Source of the DNA: an uncultured Chlamydiae bacterium
GTDB taxonomy: Bacteria; Chlamydiota; Chlamydiia; Chlamydiales; JAJFMA01
NCBI GenBank assembly: GCA_963713615.1
Contig: CAVQMM010000001.1
Location: 2,944,001 to 3,008,000, forward strand
DNA length: 64,000 nt
Direction of reading: 5' to 3'
Within the stretch, counting starts at the first letter, position 1; each line of letters opens with the position of its first letter. Made by a program: the position numbers and the translations under genes. Below the pieces are notes generated by a model. The model made no database searches and was not told the origin of the DNA. It was given only the letters and a program-made list of their open reading frames with translations. This document shows, one piece after another, positions 21,169-35,037 of this stretch.

Positions 21169-24100
21169 ATGCGGTTATTCTTTGTTGGGCTAGTGATGTT
21201 GTTGGCGTATTTCTCTACGGCTGCTGCAGCGTTAGTCGATCCTGATCCCATCACTTATGGCATGATTGATGTCATTACAGGTCAGGTTCATCTATCTCTT
21301 CCTGCAGAGGCACCGGACCCTTTAAAACTGAAGGGCATCATTGGGCTATCCGAAGCAAAAAAAGCCCAGTGTCTATATGACGAAAATACCGATACCTACA
21401 TTTTGACAGCGCCAGATGGCCGAACCGCACGGTATCAAAAAATACTTGATCTCCATGACTATTGCTTGGTCAGGGAAGACAATCCCAGCGGCACGCGCAA
21501 ATGCTATGAATACGACCCTAAAGGTCGGTTAACTGTCGTTCGGGATGCAAGCACAACCGGGGAAGTCCTTAGCCAGCTTGTTTGGCAATACCAGGAAGAC
21601 GCTTCAACCTTCACCATTACGGATAACAAAGGGCGTACATTCACCTACGACCTTACTGCGAATGGGGCAGTCCGCGGGCTAAAATATCCCGATGGCCATT
21701 CTTTTGGATATACCTATAACGTTGATGAACAACTGGTACGTGTCGATCAGCCTGACGGATACTATGTGATTGTTGAGTATGGAGATGACGGTAAAGTTAG
21801 CCAGTTGTTGGCACCCCTGGGTTATGATGATACCCCATTAACGCTCGCTCGTTATGTCTACAGCAACGACTGCACAGATGTTATTGATGCCATGGGAAAT
21901 ATCGCGCGTTACCATCATCGAGAAGGACACCTTTCCGCCAAAGAAGACTTACAGGATGGAAAACCCTACAGAAGGCTAGCTTATTGGTGGGATGGCACAG
22001 ACCATTTAACGGCTTGTGCTGCCTTGGATCAAAACCAGCAAGCTCTTTGGTCGCAGGTTTTTTCCTATGACAACCATGGCAACCTCGAGACCGAAACATT
22101 GTACGGCAACCTATCGGGTAGGGGGTCCCCCGCATTCTCTGTTGAGTCGGGACGGCCGAAGGACATGGCGGTCGAAGCATATCAAAGTTTTTACGTTCAT
22201 GATGATCTGAATCGTTTGATTGAGAAACGCGAAGACAATGGTAGCGTGACGTTATACAGCTATTTCGCTAATACGAGCCTGGTCGCATCCCAACATGTAG
22301 GCGACAGCACAGGCATCAAGTGGCGTTGTCTTTTCACGTACGATGCGGCCGGTCGACTGATCGAGACTGTAGTTGACGACGGGAACGGCATCAGTAGAGG
22401 CGACCTTACGGGAGTGACCCAACGACGAAGCGTGAATGTTATCTATGCAAACGGCAAGCCCCTGTTGGTCGATGAGAAGGTTTTTGATCCGACTACTGGC
22501 GGGGAATTCATCAAAGAGACCCTTCTGCATACCTACAATGAGCAGGGATACTTGATGGAGCGCCATCAACTGGATGGTGAAGGTGTCCGTCAGCATACTG
22601 CAAGTTATGCCTATGACATCATGGGTCGCGTTGTTAGTGCCTCCAAGGCTAGCGACGTCATTATGCAATACCGGTACGATCCATTGGGGAGACTTACTCA
22701 TCGTCGCGATAGTGCTAAGGGGATCACAAATTCATTCGTCTTTTCGCCTTCAGGATGTCGAGTGTCGGAAGATGTCCTGGATCGACAGAAGCGAGCATTT
22801 CACCAAAGTTATCGTCATGACAACATGGGCCGATGCATCGGTGCGATTGACATTTACGGCAATGAGACAAAATATGAGTACGATTTTCTGGGAAGGATAA
22901 CGCGAACACTCTATCCTGCAATAGCTGACAGCGAGGGTAACGCCACTCACCCTATTGTGGAGCGTAGTTATGACGTCTTGGGTCGAGTCATCAAGGTTAT
23001 AGATCCCGCAGGTTATGCAACAGAGATGAGTTATACCGCTCGTGGGGCCATTGCACAAGTGCGCCATCCTGATGGATCCAAGGAGTCGTTTGTTTATAGT
23101 CTCGATGGGGCTTTGAAAGAGTACACGGCCCGTAATGGTGTGATCACCTACTATGAACGAGACTACCGATCCCGAATAAGGGAAAAAACAGTATTGACAC
23201 CGGACGGGCATGAATTAACCTCTTCGGCCACCTTTAGCGCCTTCCATTTGCTGTCGACAACCGATCCTGTAGGCCGCACGATGCGTTGGCAGCATGATGC
23301 AGCCGGTCGCGTGGTGTCCGCCATATTTTTGTTTGAGCAGGGCAGTTCACAAGCACAATATACCTATGACCTTCACGATAATCTGACAGCAATTAAACAA
23401 ACATTTAATGATGCCAACATCGCTGATATGCATGGGGGTGCGCAGGAACAAATCACTAGCTGCTCTCTGGTTGATGAGTTGGAGCGACAGTTACTCTCTC
23501 CAACATATTTGCAGCCGAATACCTATCTAGCTTCTCAAATGGATGAAGACTACCGTCATGTCAACAGCCTCGGACAACGCGTATTGCGACAGAAAGAGAC
23601 TGATGAGCGGGGTATTACAACGATGACTACTCGCAATGCCCTTGGTCGCATTGTGGAGGTAGAAAAATGCGATTCCTTCGGAGCGCGGTTAACCGTTAGC
23701 CGATATGGGTATGATTCATGTGGACACATCATAGAAGAGCGCCACGGTATCACCGATCCTATAACGACTAAATATCAGTATGGGCCAATGGGACAACTGA
23801 TCAGCCGAATGGATGGTTCAGAGGCTACTTATTACCTTTACGATGCTGTCGGACAGCTGATTCGCATCCAAAAGCCCGATGGTGTTGAGCTATCCATCGC
23901 CTACGACTCTCTTGGACGCATGATACATTTTTCCTCTTCAGATGGTACCGTAGATTATTCCTACGCCTATGACACAGCTGGCAACCCTATTCAGGTTTTG
24001 GACCATGTAAACAATGCTGTGCTTAAAAGGGAATACCATGCGTTCGGTGGCATCACAAAAGATGAATCCCTGGTTTCAGTCGGTAAAGTTTTTGATTCAC

Positions 24101-26094
24101 AGGGCCGTCCAAACCGCCTCATCTTGCCTGATGGCTCTGGTATTGAGTATGAATATGATTCTGCGGGCTTAAAGGCCCTCCATCGCATATCCGAGGATGG
24201 AACCAGGCGCTATTCTCATGAATACACCAAATTTAGTCCCAAGGGGCAACCTATCGAAGCCAAAATGGTTGGCGCTGCAGGCATTTTAACAACGGAGTTG
24301 AGTAGTCATGGCAGCATCCACAAGATTACATCGCCCTGGTGGAGCCAACGCATTGACGAAGACAAAGGGCGTGTAGTTGGGACTAGGATATGGGATGCAG
24401 GCGGAAAATATGATAGCGTCTATGGCTATGATCAGCTAGGTCAGCTAACGACAGAAACTGGGTTGCGTGGCGCTCAGCATGCCTACGACAGCTTGGGTAA
24501 TCGAGTGGGATGGCAAGGACATCATTGTGATGCTAATGGCAATGTCGTTGTTCGACAGACCAGTGACGGTCCGCAACAGTTGCGCTATGACGCCCTTAAC
24601 CGTCTCATAGAGGTTCTGCAACCAGAAAAGCTCAAAGTAACCTTTACCTATGATGCTTTCAATAGACGTCAGTCAAAAACTGTTTTTCAAGCTCAGGCGG
24701 GTCATTGGGTGTCTGAGGGAACCCAATGCTATATCTACGACGATGATTGTGAGATCGGTGTCGTCGATGGTTCGGGTGAAATCACTGAACTACGCGTGCT
24801 TGGAGCCGGAATTAAAGCAGACGTTGGGTCTGCGGTAGCCATTGAGCTGAAGGGGAGCGTCTTTGCCCCAATCCACGATTCACGCGGTTGTGTTCGATGC
24901 TTGGTAGCTGCTGATGGCTCCGGCATTGCCGAAACCTACCGTTATGGAGCCTTTGGAGAAGAGCATGTCTTGAGTGCTTGTGGTAGTTCTATGAGCCCTA
25001 CAGAAGCACTTTGTCCATGGCGCTTTAGTAGTAAACGTGTGGACTCTGAATTGGGCTTGGTGTTCTTTGGACAGCGTTTCTACGACCCCACGATAGGGCG
25101 TTGGATGACCCTTGACCCTTTGGGAACCATTGATGGACCCAATAGATATGCCTTTGTACGAAATGATCCATTAGGTTTGATCGATCCACAAGGTCTATTC
25201 TCTGTAGACACCTTATGGGATTCAGCCACCACGTATGTTCGAGAGTATTTCCGCAAATTGTCATCCTTTTCCAGCTCATTGACGGACCTCTTTAAGAGTG
25301 ACATCGGCTTTGTCAATGATATCATCGATGATGTGCATTTCTTTACCTATCAGTTCATAGGCCCAGGACTATACCTGGCAGCAGGTTTGCATAATGAGGG
25401 TGTTGAGTTTGGTGTGTATGGCAACGGAGAATTTAGTGACAAAATTCGAATCTCACACATTAACGGAGTATTGAATGTTCGTGAAGGCGCTTTAGAAGCT
25501 GCGGAGTTGATTTCCCGAACGCATGGGGGCATCAACGTTCACTATCTCTTCCGTCCAACAGGAGGATTGACCAAAGACATCATCCAAGGGGCCATGACAA
25601 TCTTTGGAGTTTTTGGATATGTTTCACCGTCAGCTACACGGCTAGCGGAGGGGTGGCGTGAGCTAATCGCCGAAGTCGGGGGAGTTGGCAATGGTGGCCT
25701 TATCGTCCATTATGCCCATAGTCTGGGCGGTGCTGAGACTGCCAATGCTCGACGATTGCTCACACCGGAAGAGCAAAAGATGATCCGCGTGACAACCTTT
25801 GGGTCTGCAAAGGTGCTTCCCGACGAAGGCTTCGTACAAGTCCACAACTACATTAGTAGCTATGATGGAGTGATGGGTTTTGATCCTACAGGTTATGTAG
25901 GAGCCTTCATGGGAGGCAATACCAATGTGTCCTTCTTATCACCGCTTGGTTATTTTGCTATTGATCACATGTTTACGGGACCCACCTACAGCAAGACGCT
26001 GAGGATTCTTGGTGAACGTTTCGTAGCGTTATACGATCCGTCAAAGCGCCATACTATTTATCTTGGTGAACCCGAAGAAAGACAAGTGAAGTGA
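21169..26094 (+). CDS. Rhs/YD-repeat protein with C-terminal alpha/beta-hydrolase-like domain
   Basis: Many YDxxGR repeats; Rhs core PWRFSSKR..GLVFFGQRFYDPTIGRW..DP...NRYAFV.NDPL..IDPQG; tip contains AHSLGG. Confidence 0.9.
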   Translation: MRLFFVGLVMLLAYFSTAAAALVDPDPITYGMIDVITGQVHLSLPAEAPDPLKLKGIIGLSEAKKAQCLYDENTDTYILTAPDGRTARYQKILDLHDYCLVREDNPSGTRKCYEYDPKGRLTVVRDASTTGEVLSQLVWQYQEDASTFTITDNKGRTFTYDLTANGAVRGLKYPDGHSFGYTYNVDEQLVRVDQPDGYYVIVEYGDDGKVSQLLAPLGYDDTPLTLARYVYSNDCTDVIDAMGNIARYHHREGHLSAKEDLQDGKPYRRLAYWWDGTDHLTACAALDQNQQALWSQVFSYDNHGNLETETLYGNLSGRGSPAFSVESGRPKDMAVEAYQSFYVHDDLNRLIEKREDNGSVTLYSYFANTSLVASQHVGDSTGIKWRCLFTYDAAGRLIETVVDDGNGISRGDLTGVTQRRSVNVIYANGKPLLVDEKVFDPTTGGEFIKETLLHTYNEQGYLMERHQLDGEGVRQHTASYAYDIMGRVVSASKASDVIMQYRYDPLGRLTHRRDSAKGITNSFVFSPSGCRVSEDVLDRQKRAFHQSYRHDNMGRCIGAIDIYGNETKYEYDFLGRITRTLYPAIADSEGNATHPIVERSYDVLGRVIKVIDPAGYATEMSYTARGAIAQVRHPDGSKESFVYSLDGALKEYTARNGVITYYERDYRSRIREKTVLTPDGHELTSSATFSAFHLLSTTDPVGRTMRWQHDAAGRVVSAIFLFEQGSSQAQYTYDLHDNLTAIKQTFNDANIADMHGGAQEQITSCSLVDELERQLLSPTYLQPNTYLASQMDEDYRHVNSLGQRVLRQKETDERGITTMTTRNALGRIVEVEKCDSFGARLTVSRYGYDSCGHIIEERHGITDPITTKYQYGPMGQLISRMDGSEATYYLYDAVGQLIRIQKPDGVELSIAYDSLGRMIHFSSSDGTVDYSYAYDTAGNPIQVLDHVNNAVLKREYHAFGGITKDESLVSVGKVFDSQGRPNRLILPDGSGIEYEYDSAGLKALHRISEDGTRRYSHEYTKFSPKGQPIEAKMVGAAGILTTELSSHGSIHKITSPWWSQRIDEDKGRVVGTRIWDAGGKYDSVYGYDQLGQLTTETGLRGAQHAYDSLGNRVGWQGHHCDANGNVVVRQTSDGPQQLRYDALNRLIEVLQPEKLKVTFTYDAFNRRQSKTVFQAQAGHWVSEGTQCYIYDDDCEIGVVDGSGEITELRVLGAGIKADVGSAVAIELKGSVFAPIHDSRGCVRCLVAADGSGIAETYRYGAFGEEHVLSACGSSMSPTEALCPWRFSSKRVDSELGLVFFGQRFYDPTIGRWMTLDPLGTIDGPNRYAFVRNDPLGLIDPQGLFSVDTLWDSATTYVREYFRKLSSFSSSLTDLFKSDIGFVNDIIDDVHFFTYQFIGPGLYLAAGLHNEGVEFGVYGNGEFSDKIRISHINGVLNVREGALEAAELISRTHGGINVHYLFRPTGGLTKDIIQGAMTIFGVFGYVSPSATRLAEGWRELIAEVGGVGNGGLIVHYAHSLGGAETANARRLLTPEEQKMIRVTTFGSAKVLPDEGFVQVHNYISSYDGVMGFDPTGYVGAFMGGNTNVSFLSPLGYFAIDHMFTGPTYSKTLRILGERFVALYDPSKRHTIYLGEPEERQVK

Positions 26095-26104
26095 AATGGG
26101 AAAA

Positions 26105-26177
26105 TGGAGCGTAGCGGGATCGAACCGCTGACCTCAACAATGCCATTGTTGCGCTCTACCAACTGAGCTAACGCCCC
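26105..26177 (-). tRNA. tRNA-Ala(GGC)
   Basis: GGGGCGTTAGCTCAGTTGGTAGAGCG CAACA-ATGGCAT-TGTTG AGGTCAGCGGTTCGATCCCGCTACGCTCCA; CCA tail not encoded. Confidence 0.97.
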
Positions 26178-26221: not shown

Positions 26222-26263
26222 GTTTGGGCAGTTTGCTGGGTGTAATTCAAATTTGTACTCACC

Positions 26264-27787
26264 TTAGGCGGCTAGGCAATCGAGCTCACAGACTACCTCA
26301 TCTTGCCAAAGCCTTTCCCATTCATCGTTAGCTCGAAGAGTTCTAAGGTTTGCCATTTGATCCGCATGATCCCGTCTCCACCATGCTCCGGGCTTTTTCA
26401 ACCGCTTCTGAATCACATGGCGATGCGTGCTTTCTATTTTCCCCGAACCTATTGGCAAACCTTTTCTAATCGCTTCATCATACTTAAACTGCCCAGGTCT
26501 ATTAGTTATGTATTGTATACACTTTTGCAGGCCCTCATGCTCAGGGTGAATTTTGGAGTACTTTCGAAGCTTTCGCTTCACATTCACTATCTGTCCTTTT
26601 TTTAAGCGGGTCTTTAGCGCTCGAGTCTCCTTTTTAATATCCTCAGTCCAGGCCGTTGCTGCTCCCGCTAGATACTCACTTAAATGGGCCTTGTTCACCT
26701 TTGCGGTCAGTTTTCGGTCGACTGCAAAAGGATCGTCTGTCGCGTTTTGCTCCTCGGACATAGCTGGCGCTATGCCCTCGTCACAAACCACGACATCCGA
26801 CCTTTTTCGTCCGACCGAAATTCTGACCGTAAAGGTGAACAAGGCCCTTAAATGATACAGATCAATTAGGTAGTTCCCTCGGCTTCCTGCTACCTTTCCA
26901 TCTGTTCAGTTATCCATTTTGCTCCATCCCCTATACCATGTAATTGGCTCTGTCCTTCCCACCCAAATTGCCGTTCTAATAATGTTAGCATTCTATTTCC
27001 CAAATCATCAGGGCTATTAAAGGAACACGTGTATTTCCAGTCTGCTTCCCCTAAGCGCTGAATAACCCCCACTCTAAGCTCTGCCCAGGATACTCTTCTG
27101 TTTTTCCGTCTATCTCCAGAACCAGCTGTTTCAACTAGGGGCACCATTCCACCATCCATTTCAACCACAAGTGGGGTTGTTGGATTGTCTGCCTTTTTCC
27201 CGATAGGAGGCTTTTTCATCATCAGCTGCGCCCTCTTGGCATGTTTAAGCGTGATATTTGATATCGTAGTGGGACCGATTTCCAATCCATGGTGCTCCTT
27301 CATCTGTTTCGCGGCCCTCGAAAAAGAGTCCTCGGATCCTAGATCAGTTATCAAGCGTTGACACCGCTTTGACCAATCTCGGTGTTTTATCCCTGAAAAG
27401 TCCTCAAAAGGCCTTAAACGATGTGAAGGTCGACCACGATGCTTCTTTGCAGAAAACACCTTTGAACAACAGTGATGCGTCCTAGTGTTGTCTGCCATTC
27501 GACTTTTTTTTTCCGTGGGGACGGATGCCCTTCTCAGGCTCGTATTGAGATTCTACCTGCTTAACACGATGATCCGCCCAATTTTGAAGAATGGCCTGCC
27601 CAGACTTACGAATAGCAGCTATGGTAGCTTCTTCTGCTTCATCGCCCGTCTTAAGCTCTTCAAAATTCTTACCAACGACATCAACCATCTCCAGGAGCGG
27701 CTGTAACAGACTTGGATTTTCTCTAAGCACATGTAAAATATAACGTTCATCCTCAGAAAGGTCGTGTGATGGTGGAATAGTCTTCAT
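26264..27787 (-). pseudogene. ISKra4-like transposase (orfA plus frameshifted orfB)
   Basis: A9G slippery run near 27503-27512 joins orfA to orfB; extra 1-bp frameshift near 26893; MITE inserted at 26687-26846. Confidence 0.75.
26687..26846. mobile_element. 160-bp palindromic MITE, copy 1
   Basis: Ends GGCCTTGTTCACCTTT/AAAGGTGAACAAGGCC; 8-bp TSD cttaaatg. Confidence 0.92.
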
Positions 27788-28077
27788 CTAAATTCGCATA
27801 TTATTGATTTGGATAGGGTTTCATGCTGGGTCAGCCGCAACATTGTGTAAACGATCTTACACAAGAATTGCTCTGCGTACAAGTTTGGATTGCACCCCCA
27901 ATCCAATATTTGATTGACCTCTAAGATGAGAATTTTATAACCTGCAACTTGACATTGATCGGAATTTCGGTCAGACCTATCCCTCTAGAGCGTCGGTAGG
28001 CTTAATTCGGCCACTGCAATGACTGAATTTGGACGAACAGTTTATAAATCACTTATTTATCCATCAGGAGAACATTC

Positions 28078-28446
28078 ATGAAAAGGTATCGCAATATAGC
28101 AATCGTATTCAAACTTTTTCTTCTTTCCCTCTGTTGTAACGCATATGCAGATCCCTGTTCTAATTCCGAACAATATCAGGTTAATTTTTTAGAGATGATG
28201 GATAACAAATTCTATATAGAACCCGAGACAATATACGTTTCTCCTAAAGAAATCTTACTAAATATTTCTGGAGAGCTTTTACCTATCAAACATTTATTTT
28301 CCGATGACGGAGGTGTTTTTGTACTTGCAGAAGAGATATTAATGGCTAAAGCAAAGGATGGCCCTTGGACTTGTGCTTGGTGTGGAGAGCCTAATGATGG
28401 AGGCAATTATTGCACCACATGCTTCAAACTACGAAGGGAAAAATAA
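28078..28446 (+). CDS. Small exported protein with C-terminal C4 zinc finger
   Basis: AGGAGA RBS, signal peptide ending AYA, WTCAWCGEPNDGGNYCTTC. Confidence 0.7.
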   Translation: MKRYRNIAIVFKLFLLSLCCNAYADPCSNSEQYQVNFLEMMDNKFYIEPETIYVSPKEILLNISGELLPIKHLFSDDGGVFVLAEEILMAKAKDGPWTCAWCGEPNDGGNYCTTCFKLRREK

Positions 28447-28455
28447 TGGTAAATA

Positions 28456-29334
28456 ATGTTTAAATTCATTTTTATTTTAGTTTTATTGCTACCGAATGTC
28501 GTGCGTGCTCAGGATATAAAAAATATTCTGAGCCAGTTATCTGAGTGTGATAAACAAGACTTGAATGACCTTTTCCATGTATTGATGGATGATGATCAAT
28601 TTAGTTATACATTATTTGGAGACAAACCTGTATCATTATCTGGAGATTATATTATTACTCCTGATGAAGATAAATTATCCGGTATATCATCGGGTGAAAT
28701 TTTTTGGCAAAAGTGGGCCGTCTGGAAACGAAATCAAGAAAGATTTTCTATTTCTCATTATTTATTTATTGAAGAGCCGGCCTATAATCGCCGTGATAGT
28801 ACAATGGTTTTTATTTTCTTTATCAACAAAAAAGCCTTTATGGAGACAGTGAACAAAAATATTCAGGCTTTCAGAGATGTTTTAGGGTACAATGTAGCAG
28901 CATCCGAATTGTTAGAGAAGATGAAAAAAGAGAATGCGTTTATGAGTCTGCTAAAAGATAATGAAATGTTATTGGGTATATTGCTAGGGTATGGTGAAAA
29001 TAATGCCAAACTATACGCTCGAAGAATGAGTTTAAGGAAATTTATTACTGGAAAAACTTTGTCTATTTTACCAGAAGAAAAACCTTTACCATCTAAGGAC
29101 TTTTCGTCTATTGAAGAGGAGGAAGACTTTTTAAATCACCAGTTACGACCTTTCGCTTCTTACAATTGCGAACCGTCGATTATTTCGCCAGTACAATTTG
29201 CTGCTGATTTAAATCATAAAGAAACGCAATTGCTTCAGAAAAAGTATTCTACCTTGAGAAATAAAATTTCTCTTCTCTATGCTGAAAACAATAATTTTCT
29301 AGAAGTTACTTTATCACAATTAACACTCGATTAA
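28456..29334 (+). CDS. Hypothetical exported protein (AT-rich)
   Basis: 292-aa ORF 9 bp after the previous gene; signal peptide ending VRA; YTLFGDKPVS and LLGILLGYGENNA motifs. Confidence 0.75.
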   Translation: MFKFIFILVLLLPNVVRAQDIKNILSQLSECDKQDLNDLFHVLMDDDQFSYTLFGDKPVSLSGDYIITPDEDKLSGISSGEIFWQKWAVWKRNQERFSISHYLFIEEPAYNRRDSTMVFIFFINKKAFMETVNKNIQAFRDVLGYNVAASELLEKMKKENAFMSLLKDNEMLLGILLGYGENNAKLYARRMSLRKFITGKTLSILPEEKPLPSKDFSSIEEEEDFLNHQLRPFASYNCEPSIISPVQFAADLNHKETQLLQKKYSTLRNKISLLYAENNNFLEVTLSQLTLD

Positions 29335-29739
29335 TAAGAGGACTCTGGTTACCACACTCGGGCTCAAGCTTTGAATTTTGACCTCCGCAGAAGCCCTGCG
29401 GTTGATCGATCAAAAATGAACAACAAGGAAGGGCATATGGGGTTCCCAAATAACCTCTGAAAATATGCCTTGAAGAAGATACTGGCAGAACTTGACCGGA
29501 AGGTAGGTCTGGAGCGCTTTTCTACGTTGACTCGTTCCTTTCAGGCAAAAGGTCACGCAAAGTAGTGAAAAGTCAACAAGTTAGACTGATCCTCGCGTTT
29601 ATCGGGCGTTACGACCTCTTAAAGACTGGATTAGAGTGATGATTAAAGGGAATGTAGATGGAGTGGTTTGATCTCTAGCCCTATCCTAGTTAACATTATG
29701 GTACAGATAGGGCAGGGAAGCCACTGTTTCTATATCTAG

Positions 29740-30081
29740 CTACTCTTTGTTATCCGACTCGTCCTTTCCAAATTCAGCTTCGATTTCTTCAACCGTGGGC
29801 AAGCTCTCCTTCAATTCTTTTGTAAGGGTGTCCACAATATTCACTTGATAACCAGAAACGCTGATAGGCTTCTTAAAGTCTCTAAGAGCATATTCAACGG
29901 TAAAATTGTCTTTTGTTTTGCAGAAAATCATTCCGATGGACGGCCTATCTTCAGGTTGCTTCAGATGCTCATCCACTGCCGACAAATAAAAATTTATCTG
30001 TCCAATGTCGTTTGCTTCGAACTCACAGGCCTTCAACTCATATGTTGCGTAGTCAGTTATGTGACGTTCGTTTCCTCTCAT
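29740..30081 (-). pseudogene. C-terminal fragment of a YhcG/DUF1016 PD-(D/E)XK nuclease
   Basis: ELK..EF...DIGQINFYLSAVD..LK...DRPSIGMIFCKTK....VEYALRD..KPI.VS.Y...LPTVEEIEAE; N-terminal part absent. Confidence 0.8.
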
Positions 30082-30746
30082 ACAGATAAATTCTCACAAA
30101 AGTTTCGTTTCTACACAACATAATTTACCTCATTCCCCAGGGCGATCGCATCTTAATTTCCTTGACTAACGAGTCGAAACAGGAACTCAGCCGACATTTT
30201 CATCTTGTTCTGCATTCTTCGCACACTAAGCTTTCCTCGCGCCTGGTTGATAAGGTTTAATCCAAGTTTTCGTGCTTGTGTCATTATCTCGGGACCATTG
30301 TCCTTATATATCCTTGAAGCATCTTCATTGAACGTGAGATCAAGAACCCAATGGAGCTTATTTGCTATTTCCCAGTACGCTCGGATTGCTTGGGAGAGCT
30401 GTCCTGCATTTGCTTCGCGAGATGAAATGTAGAAGCGTTGCTCAACCGTGGTTTTGCCTTTGATGGTTCTCTCGGATTCAATCAAGATAGCAGATTTCAA
30501 GCCAGGCCATTTGCCTATGCTGCTAAGCTCATTTAGATCAGAGCTAGCCCAACATTTTCGACATTCAATTCGACCATGACCCTTGTCATATTCCTCATGC
30601 TTGGTTCCATTAAATCCATTCCAAGCAGTCTTCTTCCAACCCTCGAATAGTAGCTTGATGTCTGTGTGAAGCGTGCCTTGGTTGCCTTTCAGTCCTAAAA
30701 TATAGTCTCCTTTCTGTTCAATGATTTGGGCCGCAATCTTTCTTTG

Positions 30747-30906
30747 GGCCTTATTCACCTTTGCGGTCAGTTTTCGGTCGACTGCAAAAGGATCGTCTGT
30801 CGCGTTTTGCTCCTCGGACATAGCTGGCGCTATGCCCTCGTCACAAACCACGACATCCGACCTTTTTCGTCCGACCGAAATTCTGACCGTAAAGGTGAAC
30901 AAGGCC
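30747..30906. mobile_element. 160-bp palindromic MITE, copy 2
   Basis: Identical to copy 1 except one base; 8-bp TSD tttctttg. Confidence 0.92.
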
Positions 30907-31270
30907 TTTCTTTGGCACCCCATTGCATCCATGGTGACTATCTGACCCTCCAAATCTAACATAGCAAGAAGCTCAGGCTGTACGGCGACAGCGATGATGG
31001 CACCTCGGCGACACGCAGTTGGCACCTTCCATCACCGCCCGGCGTCAGCGAGTTGGCACCTTCCATCACCGACTGACGACAACCTCCTGGCACCTCCTCC
31101 ATCACCGACCCGCGACACGCGGTTGGCACCTCCCATCACCGCCCGACGACAGTCGGTTGGCACCTAAAAACAGGCCAGAATCACCCGGGCCCAGATCCTT
31201 CTCGTCTGAAGTCCTTCCAGCCCGGTCCATACCCGCAGGGCGAGTATGGACCATCTGTTCTAACTTCTTC

Positions 31271-31603
31271 TCAGATCACTGGATCGTCTCCGATAGTCTT
31301 TCTAGTGCTACCCTCCAGAGCCTCCAAGTCTTCCTCCAATTTTGCATGAAAGGCATAGATCTGTTCCAGATATTCTGCAACAAGTTCTCTAAAACGTCTA
31401 CGTAGATCTTCCTCCAAGCCAGCTACTAGGGCCAATAGCTGAAAAATCCCTTCTCGCACCTCTAAAGATGGGGCCACATAAGTCCTGTCTCCACTTAGGG
31501 CGTTTTCTATTGAGCTATCGGCTCTACGCTCAAGCTCAGCCACCGCATTTCGTAAATCCTCAACCAAAGCCCTACTGAGGAGTATTTCTGAATGATGTTT
31601 CAT
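31271..31603 (-). CDS. Hypothetical helical protein inside IS21
   Basis: ATG 2 nt after the istB stop with GAGG RBS; Glu/Leu-rich 110 aa. Confidence 0.55.
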   Translation of the reverse strand: MKHHSEILLSRALVEDLRNAVAELERRADSSIENALSGDRTYVAPSLEVREGIFQLLALVAGLEEDLRRRFRELVAEYLEQIYAFHAKLEEDLEALEGSTRKTIGDDPVI

Positions 31604-31605
31604 GT

Positions 31606-32430
31606 TTACCTCGAATCTTGTATTTCTTGATTCATGCAAGTACTCAATGTTTTCGCCCGATCCTGGTCGGTCACACTGGCTCTTGCTTTAGCTGACAAGC
31701 TGTTCCTGCGATAACTTTCGCCGTTGATCTGGATAATTTGAGCGTCATGTACCAGCCTGTCTATTGCGGCCACCGCCATAGCTTTATCTTGAAATATGTT
31801 GGTCCATTCACTGAATGGCTGATTACATGTTATGATCAGGCTCTTTCGCTCATATCGCTCTGAGATCAGCTCAAAGAGAACATTTGTTTCCATGAGATCC
31901 TTGTTGGCATAGCCAAAATCGTCTAAAATCAAACAATCATATTTATCCAGCTTTGCTAGCGTTGTCGGTAGCGTCAGGGCCTGTTTTGAGGCTTGAAGCC
32001 TTTGAATGAGCTCGGTGGTACGCATGAACAAAACACGGAACTTGTGCTCTAAGAGTCCCGCTCCAATTGCAGCTGCCAGATGTGTTTTACCAACTCCTGA
32101 GGGGCCAAAAATCAGAATGTTTCTGCCCTCGCGTAGCCAGTTCCCACCTGAGGCTAATGTACAAATCAACGTCTTATTGAGCGATGTCACTTTGAAGTCG
32201 AAGTCTGTAAGTGTTTTACCTAGGGGCAGGCAGGATTCCTTCAGGTGCCTGATCATACGACGATCCGTTCTTCCTGTTAATTCGTGTTCACACAAGACTT
32301 TCAGGCATTTGGCGCTTCCCCACCCTTCAAGGTCCGCTTGATGACTCATTTCTTCCCACAAAGCGGCCATTGTTGGCAGGCGAAGCTGCTTGAGTAGTAT
32401 CGGTAGTACTGCTTCTTCTTTTGTAACCAT
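31606..32430 (-). CDS. istB: IS21 helper ATPase
   Basis: GPSGVGKTH, LILDDFGY, ERYE, AAIDRLVH, GESYR. Confidence 0.95.
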   Translation of the reverse strand: MVTKEEAVLPILLKQLRLPTMAALWEEMSHQADLEGWGSAKCLKVLCEHELTGRTDRRMIRHLKESCLPLGKTLTDFDFKVTSLNKTLICTLASGGNWLREGRNILIFGPSGVGKTHLAAAIGAGLLEHKFRVLFMRTTELIQRLQASKQALTLPTTLAKLDKYDCLILDDFGYANKDLMETNVLFELISERYERKSLIITCNQPFSEWTNIFQDKAMAVAAIDRLVHDAQIIQINGESYRRNSLSAKARASVTDQDRAKTLSTCMNQEIQDSR

Positions 32431-32446
32431 GAATCTTCTCCTAAAT

Positions 32447-33943
32447 TTATAATGTGGCGTGCTTTAACAGCTCGTCGTATGAGCCAAGATCGTGTTGTTC
32501 AATCTCTACCAGAGGGACAACGTGCTTCGCTTCCTTAAAGTGTTGCTGTAGCTCTTCAAAGCTTGGTATGCGTTGCTCGTTTAGTGCCTTTCGAAGCTCG
32601 GCTGCAATTTGTTGCTGGTGACCGTCTGCAGCCAGCTTTAAGATCCTCACCATTTCCTTACATGCCATACGCTCATCAAGCCGCGCATCCAGTAACACCC
32701 AAGCCTGGCGAAATTCATCGCTGGGAAATAAATCATCTCTAAAGATGTAGTGTCGAAACGCTTGAGGCTTGCGGACAAGCTCAGGAATGACATGGCGATA
32801 GTCGATGTTTCTTGGGCGAGGACCCGTCTTGCTCCAACGTAATCGCGGAAAAGTAATGATATGAGAGGCTGCATGAAAACACTCTAATCGGTCGTCATGA
32901 ACGTGTACCGTTAACGTATGACCTATCAAGCGCGAAGGCACTGCATAATATGCCTGTCGTACGGTTATGATGCCCGTGGTAGGAACACCGACGTTTTCTA
33001 TATCGTGACTGCCTACCTTATGTTTTGGGAGAGGCTTTAGGTGCTTTCGTTCTTCAGCTACTTCAGCCTGACGTCGCGAATTGTCACTTTTAACAATTTC
33101 ATCGACAAAGTTTCGATACTCTTGCAGTGAGGAAAAGTCTCTAGAACCCCTCAGGCGCAGCTTTTGATCGATTTTATTTTTAAGATGTCTGTGCGAACTT
33201 TCAATACTGCCATTTTCATGCTTTACTCCTTTATTGTTTCGCGTGGGCTTTACATCATAGTGTGCGCACATTTCATTGTACGCGTTTGTAAGGTCCTCTC
33301 TTGCTGATTCATTTAGATTTTTATATGCCGCTGAAAGACTATCGGTACGATGGGTTTCAGGTACCCCACCTAGCTCCCATAACGCATTTTGAAAACCTGC
33401 AGAGAGAGCTACATGGGACTCTCCTCCCAGAATGACAAAGGCATATGCCCAGCCGCTGAATGGAACCCTGAAATGATACAGCAAATGAGGAAGCGAAGTA
33501 CCCTCTATTGTTACATGCAGTTCATCGCAGTTGGTAAAGTCAGAAATGCCCTGAAAACCGGGAGGGTGGTTTTGCCGAAAGATCCGTTCCTTCTCCCTTC
33601 CATGGAGTGCTTTCCATTGCCGAACCCTTCTTTGTAGGGTTCTAAGTAGGCTGTCGGGATATTCCTGTGGATAGCGTTCCTGGAGATCCCGCATTAAGGT
33701 AATGGGCGTTAGGAACGGATCTCTTTCCAACAGGGGAACGAACTCGGTCCTCCAGACTTTCGCGAAGGGGTCTGATGAAGATCCAGATTTGGAGCGATAC
33801 TCCTTGATATGAGTGCCTTTCTCGAAGCGCTTAGCGCTTCGCGTACTAATACCCGCTTTGGCAGCGGCAGTGGCCTGCATGCTGCCACCGTTTCTAATTT
33901 GCATATACAACCTCAATTGTTCTTTCGTAATTCTATTTGACAT
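32447..33943 (-). CDS. istA: IS21 transposase
   Basis: RTLQRR, SDFT, GGVPETHRTDSLSAA, HENGSIES. Confidence 0.95.
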   Translation of the reverse strand: MSNRITKEQLRLYMQIRNGGSMQATAAAKAGISTRSAKRFEKGTHIKEYRSKSGSSSDPFAKVWRTEFVPLLERDPFLTPITLMRDLQERYPQEYPDSLLRTLQRRVRQWKALHGREKERIFRQNHPPGFQGISDFTNCDELHVTIEGTSLPHLLYHFRVPFSGWAYAFVILGGESHVALSAGFQNALWELGGVPETHRTDSLSAAYKNLNESAREDLTNAYNEMCAHYDVKPTRNNKGVKHENGSIESSHRHLKNKIDQKLRLRGSRDFSSLQEYRNFVDEIVKSDNSRRQAEVAEERKHLKPLPKHKVGSHDIENVGVPTTGIITVRQAYYAVPSRLIGHTLTVHVHDDRLECFHAASHIITFPRLRWSKTGPRPRNIDYRHVIPELVRKPQAFRHYIFRDDLFPSDEFRQAWVLLDARLDERMACKEMVRILKLAADGHQQQIAAELRKALNEQRIPSFEELQQHFKEAKHVVPLVEIEQHDLGSYDELLKHATL

Positions 33944-35037
33944 CCTAACTCTCGCTTAAGTTTGGGGACGTCAGCATTCTAAATGCTCTCTTGCAAGCTC
34001 CCAAGAAAGGACTGAAAGATTTGAGGGATTGGGCCGTTGATTCTGGCCTGTTTTTAGGTGCCAACCGACTGTCGTCGGGCGGTGATGGGAGGTGCCAACC
34101 GCGTGTCGCGGGTCGGTGATGGAGGAGGTGCCAGGAGGTTGTCGTCAGTCGGTGATGGAAGGTGCCAACTCGCTGACGCCGGGCGGTGATGGAAGGTGCC
34201 AACTGCGTGTCGCCGAGGTGCCATCATCACTGTCGCCGTACACTCAGGCAGAGCTGTGATCTCGTTGGATTTGCTATCAACAGCTACTTGCCCTAAAACT
34301 AAACGGTTTTGCGTAGCCCAGGCAGACACTGCATGTAAGGCTTCTTTACCATTCTCAGGATTGGCGCTTGCGCGAGCTGTTTTGCCATCAATCGCTATGA
34401 CCTCTTTGCAGGGCTTTTTCAACGTGTTTGTAAATTCTACAAAGCAATGATGAAAGGTCTTTGGATTGAGCCTAGACATTACACGCCCAAATGTATCATG
34501 GGATGGTACACCATTAGGCAGAGGGACAACCGCTGCAAAAAGATCAAAATTAGCTTCACAATAATCGTGCATTCCCACCCATTCATCAATACCAGCCATA
34601 GCTGAACAGATGGCGATGAAGATAATGCTCATTAAGGGATGTTTTTTTGTGCGATCAATTCTGGGATCTTCAATTTGCTGAAAAACAATCTTAAGACGCT
34701 CTGCTGCTGACATTGTTATCTCCTCTATAGTGTGATGGCGAGGAGATATAATACCTAGTCAAAAATTTAGATGCGATCGCCCTGGGAGAATCTCCGAAGT
34801 CATCTGATCCTTTTTGCGCAAAAACTGTAGAGGCCAGAAGACGCTCACACCGGTGGGACCACGTACTGAGGCGCCGCACAGAGCTTCACGGAGAGTGATG
34901 ATCTTATCAGGATCGTTTTCGAGAGGCTTGTTAGTCATATGACCTGGGCTATCCTCGCGTTTTCAAGCATTATCACACTATCTTCAAAAATGGATTAAGG
35001 AACGTAGCCTATGACATTATACATATTGTAGGGTGAT

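Follow-up and report, generated by a model that had tools for sequence, protein, structure and literature searches.

A recently amplified palindromic MITE in a chlamydial genome, its likely DUF6399 partner and the probable chance origin of two in-frame insertions

Two copies of a 160-bp imperfect palindrome interrupt transposase genes in a 64,000-nt stretch of the genome of an uncultured Chlamydiae bacterium (positions 2,944,001 to 3,008,000 of contig CAVQMM010000001.1; hereafter the window). A reading of this stretch from its sequence alone had taken the palindrome for an active MITE (miniature inverted-repeat transposable element) able to enter open reading frames (ORFs) without breaking them. 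We find the MITE to be genuine and its amplification recent; its partner is unclassified. Comparison of sequences and a structural model suggest that it is a non-autonomous element of 129 full copies, likely moved in trans by a DUF6399 protein that a 1.9-kb insertion sequence (IS) encodes, and that its in-frame position in the window is likely due to chance; we put the probability of this reading at about 0.82. The idea that this transposon is made to leave reading frames intact fails, and the element is thus not a second case of the Rickettsia palindromic elements (RPEs). What remains after the frame claim fails is useful but modest.

BLAST searches of the 3.97-Mb genome (three contigs) with the element found 162 loci, of which 129 were full length. 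Type A accounts for 116 of these and type B for 13, the latter also 160 bp long and ~73% identical to type A. Since 80 of the 116 type A copies are identical, the type A burst was recent. Target-site duplications (TSDs) were exact and 8 bp long at 110 full copies, had one mismatch at three, measured 9 bp at one and were lacking at 15; no pairing of these 15 as reciprocal recombinants was found. Alleles that are naturally empty and hold the 8-mer once exist for 28 sites, both window sites among them. The target is loose and oriented (S-W-T-rich-S), with T exceeding A in 77 and A exceeding T in 22 of the 110 exact TSDs, and the GC content of the TSDs is 33%. The consensus YTTnnnTG, shared by the two window sites, fits just 7 of the 110 exact TSDs and was rejected as a general target. 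The element is short, has terminal inverted repeats (TIRs), carries no transposase, makes a constant TSD that is backed by empty alleles and has a long partner with matching ends, as a MITE should. Of the claim of an active MITE, recent activity and the fixed 8-bp TSD stand; an ability of the element to enter ORFs without breakage is not supported.

The search for an autonomous IS with matching ends, a check proposed by the sequence-only reading, found an element of 1,883 bp at C1:1035800-1037682. It has the TSD CTCAAAGG, the ends GGCCTTATTCAC/GGCCTTGTTCAC and a 577-codon open frame. Its ends match those of type A at 20-22 of 24 nt and show the A/G asymmetry at nt 7 that is seen in the type A consensus. 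A second, interrupted copy begins at 3024579. Type B ends match those of a second DUF6399 element (C1:1074398-1076015; 22/24 nt), whose protein lacks ~90 internal residues. When every matching end in the genome was scanned, the only long partners were DUF6399 elements. Both partner proteins matched DUF6399 only in Pfam, and a family search of both in NCBIfam gave no match. GGC ends and 8-bp repeats are common to several IS families, and on these grounds an IS1595 (ISPna2 group) or IS1 parent had been suggested. The scan and the domain matches do not support such a parent, and a different mover of this kind, like specific targeting of transposase genes (see below), appears very improbable.

Full DUF6399 elements also occur in the genome G144, which has four that measure 1,966 bp and all differ in their 8-bp TSDs. 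Among 7,994 candidates scored, 1,194 were DUF6399 homologues, and most of the 120 listed lie on ~2-kb contigs, as expected of a multicopy IS. In another genome, G226, the DUF6399 elements (L228, L230, L233) have unusually long TIRs of >60 bp, starting GGCCATTTTC. A literature search, which did not extend to ISfinder or subscription papers, found no description of the element or of DUF6399, and a full-text name query returned 0 papers.

The predicted fold of the DUF6399 protein is that of a DDE transposase resembling those of Hermes and ISCth4. Residues D165, D220, H242 and E472 were invariant in 96 of 96 aligned DUF6399 sequences. In the AlphaFold model (predicted local distance difference test score, pLDDT, 86.9) a long helical insertion interrupts an RNase H core, and the model's best fold matches were Hermes (E 1e-5) and ISCth4 (E 7e-4). 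Comparison of the RNase H core gave Z 14.4 and a root-mean-square deviation of 2.9 over 142 aligned residues. Searching the PDB by sequence with a DUF6399 profile gave nothing meaningful; the fold search alone was informative. Neighbours of DUF6399 in the Atlas have Mutator and ISL3 domains (PF00872, PF01610), and one DUF6399 cluster has 21% PF01610 members. ISL3 elements have GG ends, an 8-bp repeat and an AT-rich target. The DNA features of our element fit this description, including the GC content of its TSDs, but Pfam found no PF01610 match in the partner proteins.

The prokaryotic Mutator-like transposases include those of IS256, ISH6, ISLre2 and ISKra4, and are recognised by a C/D(2)H motif 11-19 residues after the second aspartate (D2), direct repeats of 8-9 bp, inverted repeats of 18-39 bp and a helical insert of 99-138 residues (PMC3942029). 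DUF6399 resembles them in its predicted RNase H DDE core with helical insertion, in a D/ExxH motif 19 residues past D2 (D239xxH242 in the partner protein), in its 8-bp repeats and ~24-bp inverted repeats, in having ISCth4 as a top fold match and in its PF00872/PF01610 neighbours. It differs from that description in that ~250 residues separate D220 from E472, in that the first motif position holds E in 65 of the 96 sequences and D in the other 31 (the H being invariant), and in that no NCBIfam family hidden Markov model (HMM) matches it. The partner may work like a Mutator-type or ISL3-type DDE transposase, and is filed in neither family.

The window copies differ from each other at nt 7 alone (G/A), a change that is synonymous in the frame used. 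In the palindrome 106 of 160 positions are self-complementary, the whole element forms one long hairpin with terminal arms of ~24 nt that are 92-96% complementary, and the computed fold of the minus strand has -105.8 kcal/mol (z = -15). Frames are named here by element strand and offset (+0 to -2). In type A, frames +0, +1 and -1 are open, and both window copies are read in -1, which is the sole open frame of the minus strand and encodes the 53-residue peptide given by the sequence-only reading; the two others lie on the plus strand. Each insertion adds 168 bp to its host. The palindromes, their TSDs, the frames and the common register in an ISKra4-like and an ISAs1 transposase were all confirmed as first described. 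The features of the two copies are as follows.

26687..26846, no strand assigned: copy 1 of the MITE (type A), 160 bp long with G at nt 7, ~24-bp TIRs GGCCTTRTTCACC, hairpin end to end
26679..26686, plus strand: left TSD of copy 1, CTTAAATG, single in empty alleles
26847..26854, plus strand: right TSD of copy 1
30747..30906, no strand assigned: MITE type A copy 2, equal to the consensus sequence that is identical in 80 copies
30739..30746, plus strand: left TSD of copy 2, TTTCTTTG
30907..30914, plus strand: right TSD of copy 2

All six host frames were scored at every copy, and 49 sites had a candidate ORF. The flanking pieces were checked by Pfam, NCBIfam, paralogues and relatives, which left 15 type A copies that are confidently intragenic. 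Copies before a start codon (38048, 126984, 235585, 492192, 2740813, 3263872 and others) or with poor coding scores were dropped, as were the non-independent twin 1539319 and the uncertain copy 3742581. The 15 copies, named by coordinate, use the following frames.

Frame +0, open: 227376 (GT92), 384250 (ISAs1), 386723, 1369314
Frame -1, open: 1963401 and both window copies
Frame -0, closed: 1037935, 1125965, 3694341 (Rhs)
Frame -2, closed: 3158190, 2113302
Frame +2, closed: 1393926, 3092123 (IS701), 3491436

Intragenic copies were thus found in five of the six frames (+0 4, +1 0, +2 3, -0 3, -1 3, -2 2), with 7 copies open and 8 closed. Under a null that takes target preference into account, 46% would be open and 17% in -1, and neither the open count (7/15, P = 0.58) nor the use of -1 (3/15, P = 0.48) departs from it. 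Adding 3742581 gave 8/16 open (P = 0.47), and hosts with HMM or paralogue support only gave 5 open and 5 closed. Both well-supported intragenic type B copies, in a NUDIX and an Rhs gene, are closed. The chance that two insertions share one open register is ~7%, and that both are open ~21%. This tabulation, named beforehand as the test that could refute frame preservation, came out against it, and the register of the window copies is no rule. The in-frame position in both window genes is likely to be chance.

The hosts of the open copies are for the most part damaged. Other lesions are present in six of seven, including the two in the window, as had been noticed at the outset: the ISKra4-like transposase is frameshifted ~45 bp upstream of the MITE, and the ISAs1 transposase is split by an IS21 element. 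The 384k ISAs1 and GT92 hosts are frameshifted, and those at 1369314 and 1963401 are gene fragments, the corresponding genes of relatives running to 900-1,000 and 648 codons, respectively. The sole whole-looking open host, at 386723, is similar to an adjacent HEAT-like gene. No recognisable housekeeping gene was found among the confirmed intragenic hosts, and the upstream piece of the NUDIX host was not found in five relatives. Only ~19 of the 114 TSD-bearing copies are intragenic compared to 72% expected, which suggests that insertions into genes are purged.

Several points weigh against our reading. The intragenic set has few members, chosen by hand out of the 49 candidates; three of its closed members have only a coding score behind them, and without these and two weak open members the count is 5 vs 5. 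None of the five subfamily consensuses, and none of the 21 160-bp copies from relatives, has a stop in frame +1 or -1, and the rough chance of open consensuses, a product of computed values, is ~0.09. The 160-bp length is held in four genomes at 70-85% identity. The case for the DUF6399 protein as the likely mover is built from ends, TSD and predicted fold, and G002 and G268, fragmented drafts rich in 160-bp relatives of the element, gave no DUF6399 match in the search made of them.

Some of these points would suit an RPE-like coding palindrome, whose length and sequence were selected to keep host frames and whose 53-residue peptide is tolerated. The open frames of the relatives, the strongest point for this view, are joined here by the 108 of 129 copies that add a multiple of 3, by the in-frame insert in the apparently whole gene at C1:386723 and by new stops somewhat below expectation (3 vs 5.8 in the +1/-1 frames among 145 distinct within-family changes, P = 0.20). 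Yet stops are brought by 8 of the 15 intragenic type A copies and by both type B copies, and the lone whole host is read in +0, not in the frame first proposed. Between subfamilies, third codon positions have no excess of substitutions (105 vs 125 and 110), and both frames were open 14% of the time when the interior was shuffled with the ends fixed. Other MITEs, with GGCCTT or GGCTATT ends, range from 103 to 317 bp, and their length plus TSD spans all three residues modulo 3. A search for the peptide in longer proteins gave nine hits among 19 candidates, but all were 97-100% identical, and each hit either has host parts that match this genome or itself lies on this genome's contig. NCBIfam includes RPE models, and it matched 0 of 9 element peptides at E up to 10. 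The coding reading is already largely refuted, and we consider it improbable.

In the explanation that we favour, a MITE moved by the DUF6399 protein, the transposase would bind the ~24-bp ends and make an 8-bp staggered cut, with one orientation probably favoured at the replication fork. Insertions in needed genes would be purged irrespective of frame, and the survivors would lie in intergenic DNA, inside other repeats or in genes that can be spared, such as dead transposases and Rhs cassettes, the frame in these genes being random. Since 168 bp are added and three of six frames are open, about half of the surviving intragenic insertions would be in frame. Specific targeting of transposase genes would account for the six of 15 intragenic hosts that are transposases (by HMM or paired copies), but most copies lie outside transposases, transposase hosts are the expected survivors, and RUP and NEMIS MITEs are known in transposase genes (PMC2229807). 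Targeting of gene starts or ends was also rejected, the median distance from a copy to the nearest called gene being ~200 bp.

Internally deleted derivatives of 54-67 bp lie at C1:1056875, 1551998, 1916159, 2169087, 2251201, 3278605, 3583648 and 3678934. Three of these short derivatives have their own exact 8-bp TSD, and so the MITE ends alone seem to be enough for movement. At C1:130119-130342 a full copy sits within a short derivative of the same element, and 19 of the 129 full copies are nested in other high-copy repeats.

The orientation of type A is linked to replication. GC skew turns at ~0.81 and 2.87 Mb, and the plus strand of type A lies on the leading strand in 83 of 112 chromosomal copies (P = 2e-6 against 52% expected from target preference). 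The bias of type B (8/13) was not significant. At least four further high-copy repeat families are present (301, 128, 63 and 50 hits; C1:143100-143254, 2094151-2094300, 1105549-1105700 and 2233228-2233380), and four such families showed no strand bias (153/301, 61/128, 27/63, 27/50). Family-specific strand bias is known for IS200/IS605, IS607, ISL3, IS91 and ISNCYa (PMC3971601). Here the fork-linked bias is in a MITE, and the family stands outside that survey's table. The 110 clean insertion sites define the 8-bp duplication, the oriented target and the fork-linked orientation for the IS family labelled DUF6399.

Compensatory change was seen at 23 of 57 hairpin pairs, 95% of cells were paired compared to ~40% with partners slid, and in each of the five subfamilies the minus strand has the better fold of the two strands. 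The central hairpin core recurs between wholly different ends in seven genomes (G003, G203, G247, G268, G279, G314 and G329), and between unrelated inverted ends at three places in this genome (L060, C1:191k; L061, C1:1795k; L059, C1:2417k). This suggests that the core is a module common to several MITE families with unrelated ends. L208, L205, L247, L211, L164, L159 and L180 likewise have the core between different ends. The hairpin body may then be the selected unit, a portable RNA or single-stranded DNA module riding on ends that belong to several unrelated IS families, with the fixed length and open frames as by-products of structure. Arm-to-arm copying within a palindrome yields the same covariation, however, and one arm of the G268 copy L196 is converted; an Rfam scan of the element (E up to 1) gave no match. 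We hold this reading as a tentative one that is compatible with the favoured explanation and does not exclude it. In a similarly speculative extension, DUF6399 would be an unclassified Mutator/ISL3-like IS family with fixed orientation at the fork, and the hairpin module would have been picked up repeatedly by unrelated IS ends across the phylum, aiding spread as single-stranded DNA or RNA.

The element was found in 17 of 400 genomes of a phylum sample and DUF6399 in 14 of 400. Homologues measure 160 bp in G002, G268 and G376 (70-85% identity), the G286 homologue has 161 bp and the G144 one 153 bp, and with 160-bp homologues in Chlamydiae the chlamydial setting suggested earlier is plausible. 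A GTDB pattern scan returned at least 67 loci, mostly chance matches, and two aligned to the element among the matches listed.

The element is most like RUP of Streptococcus pneumoniae and Correia/NEMIS of Neisseria in being a repeat of 100-200 bp with TIRs, a long hairpin, a TSD and ~100 near-identical copies, mostly intergenic but also in transposase genes, with a partner inferred via shared ends (PMC2229807, PMC10969869). Open frames of the 107-bp NEMIS are fused to ORFs, transposases included (PMC2229807, PMC10969869), and ~90% intergenic location is typical of bacterial MITEs (PMC11602168). Unlike RUP and NEMIS, our element has an 8-bp TSD rather than TA, a DUF6399 rather than an IS630 partner, an oriented T-rich target and a replichore bias. 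With RPEs it shares a palindrome of ~150 bp with an open frame, some in-frame insertions and a bacterium that is probably intracellular (PMC10969869, PMC2229807). RPEs, however, keep the frame within conserved genes that work, 11 of 12 homologues being in frame and gmk active (PMC10969869, PMC2229807), whereas here frames are random, hosts dispensable, the TSD sharp and a transposase partner visible. ORF-bearing enterobacterial repeats (PMC2759123) were also considered in this comparison.

Individual loci show how the MITE affects genes. In L008 (C1:3690500-3697500) one Rhs gene was struck by copies of both types, A and B, which both add a stop, and an uninterrupted paralogue lies near C1:1.74 Mb. 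In L009 (C1:492192) the TSD includes the likely ATG of the host, and the downstream duplicate restores the start codon, leaving the gene whole. Called proteins P0007-P0009, for example an LMF1-family gene at L030 (C1:126984), begin at a GTG within the MITE; their N-terminal extensions are false or incidental, and the MITE explains these errors in the gene calls of this genome.

The hosts in the window and the element that splits the second are as follows.

26238..27897, minus strand: host 1, ISKra4-like IS, transposase frameshifted ~45 bp upstream of the MITE
30138..34784, minus strand: host 2, ISAs1-family IS, transposase interrupted upstream of the MITE by an IS21 element
30979..34242, minus strand: IS21 element (istA/istB) inside the ISAs1 transposase, 7-bp direct repeat CTCAGGC

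A sister of host 1 at C1:1539k has the same frameshift and the same MITE site; its MITE, at 1539319, is a 162-bp variant in which the frame is no longer kept. Elsewhere in the genome the ISKra4 site has three natural empty alleles and the ISAs1 site one, all with one copy of their 8-mer. Reads from four peat or soil assemblies compared with the window included an empty ISKra4 site. Four element flanks in peat or soil reads, on short contigs, have no counterpart in this genome, which hints at other MITE insertion sites. Promoter and terminator scans over copy 2 gave 0 and 0. The IS21 element has six more near-full-length copies across the genome and several short tandem repeats at its ends. A 1,641-residue Rhs-repeat ORF occupies 21169-26094 of the window. 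Just past it, ~60 bp from the ISKra4 end, a tRNA-like stretch was noticed at 26105-26177 by eye and by its high read depth.

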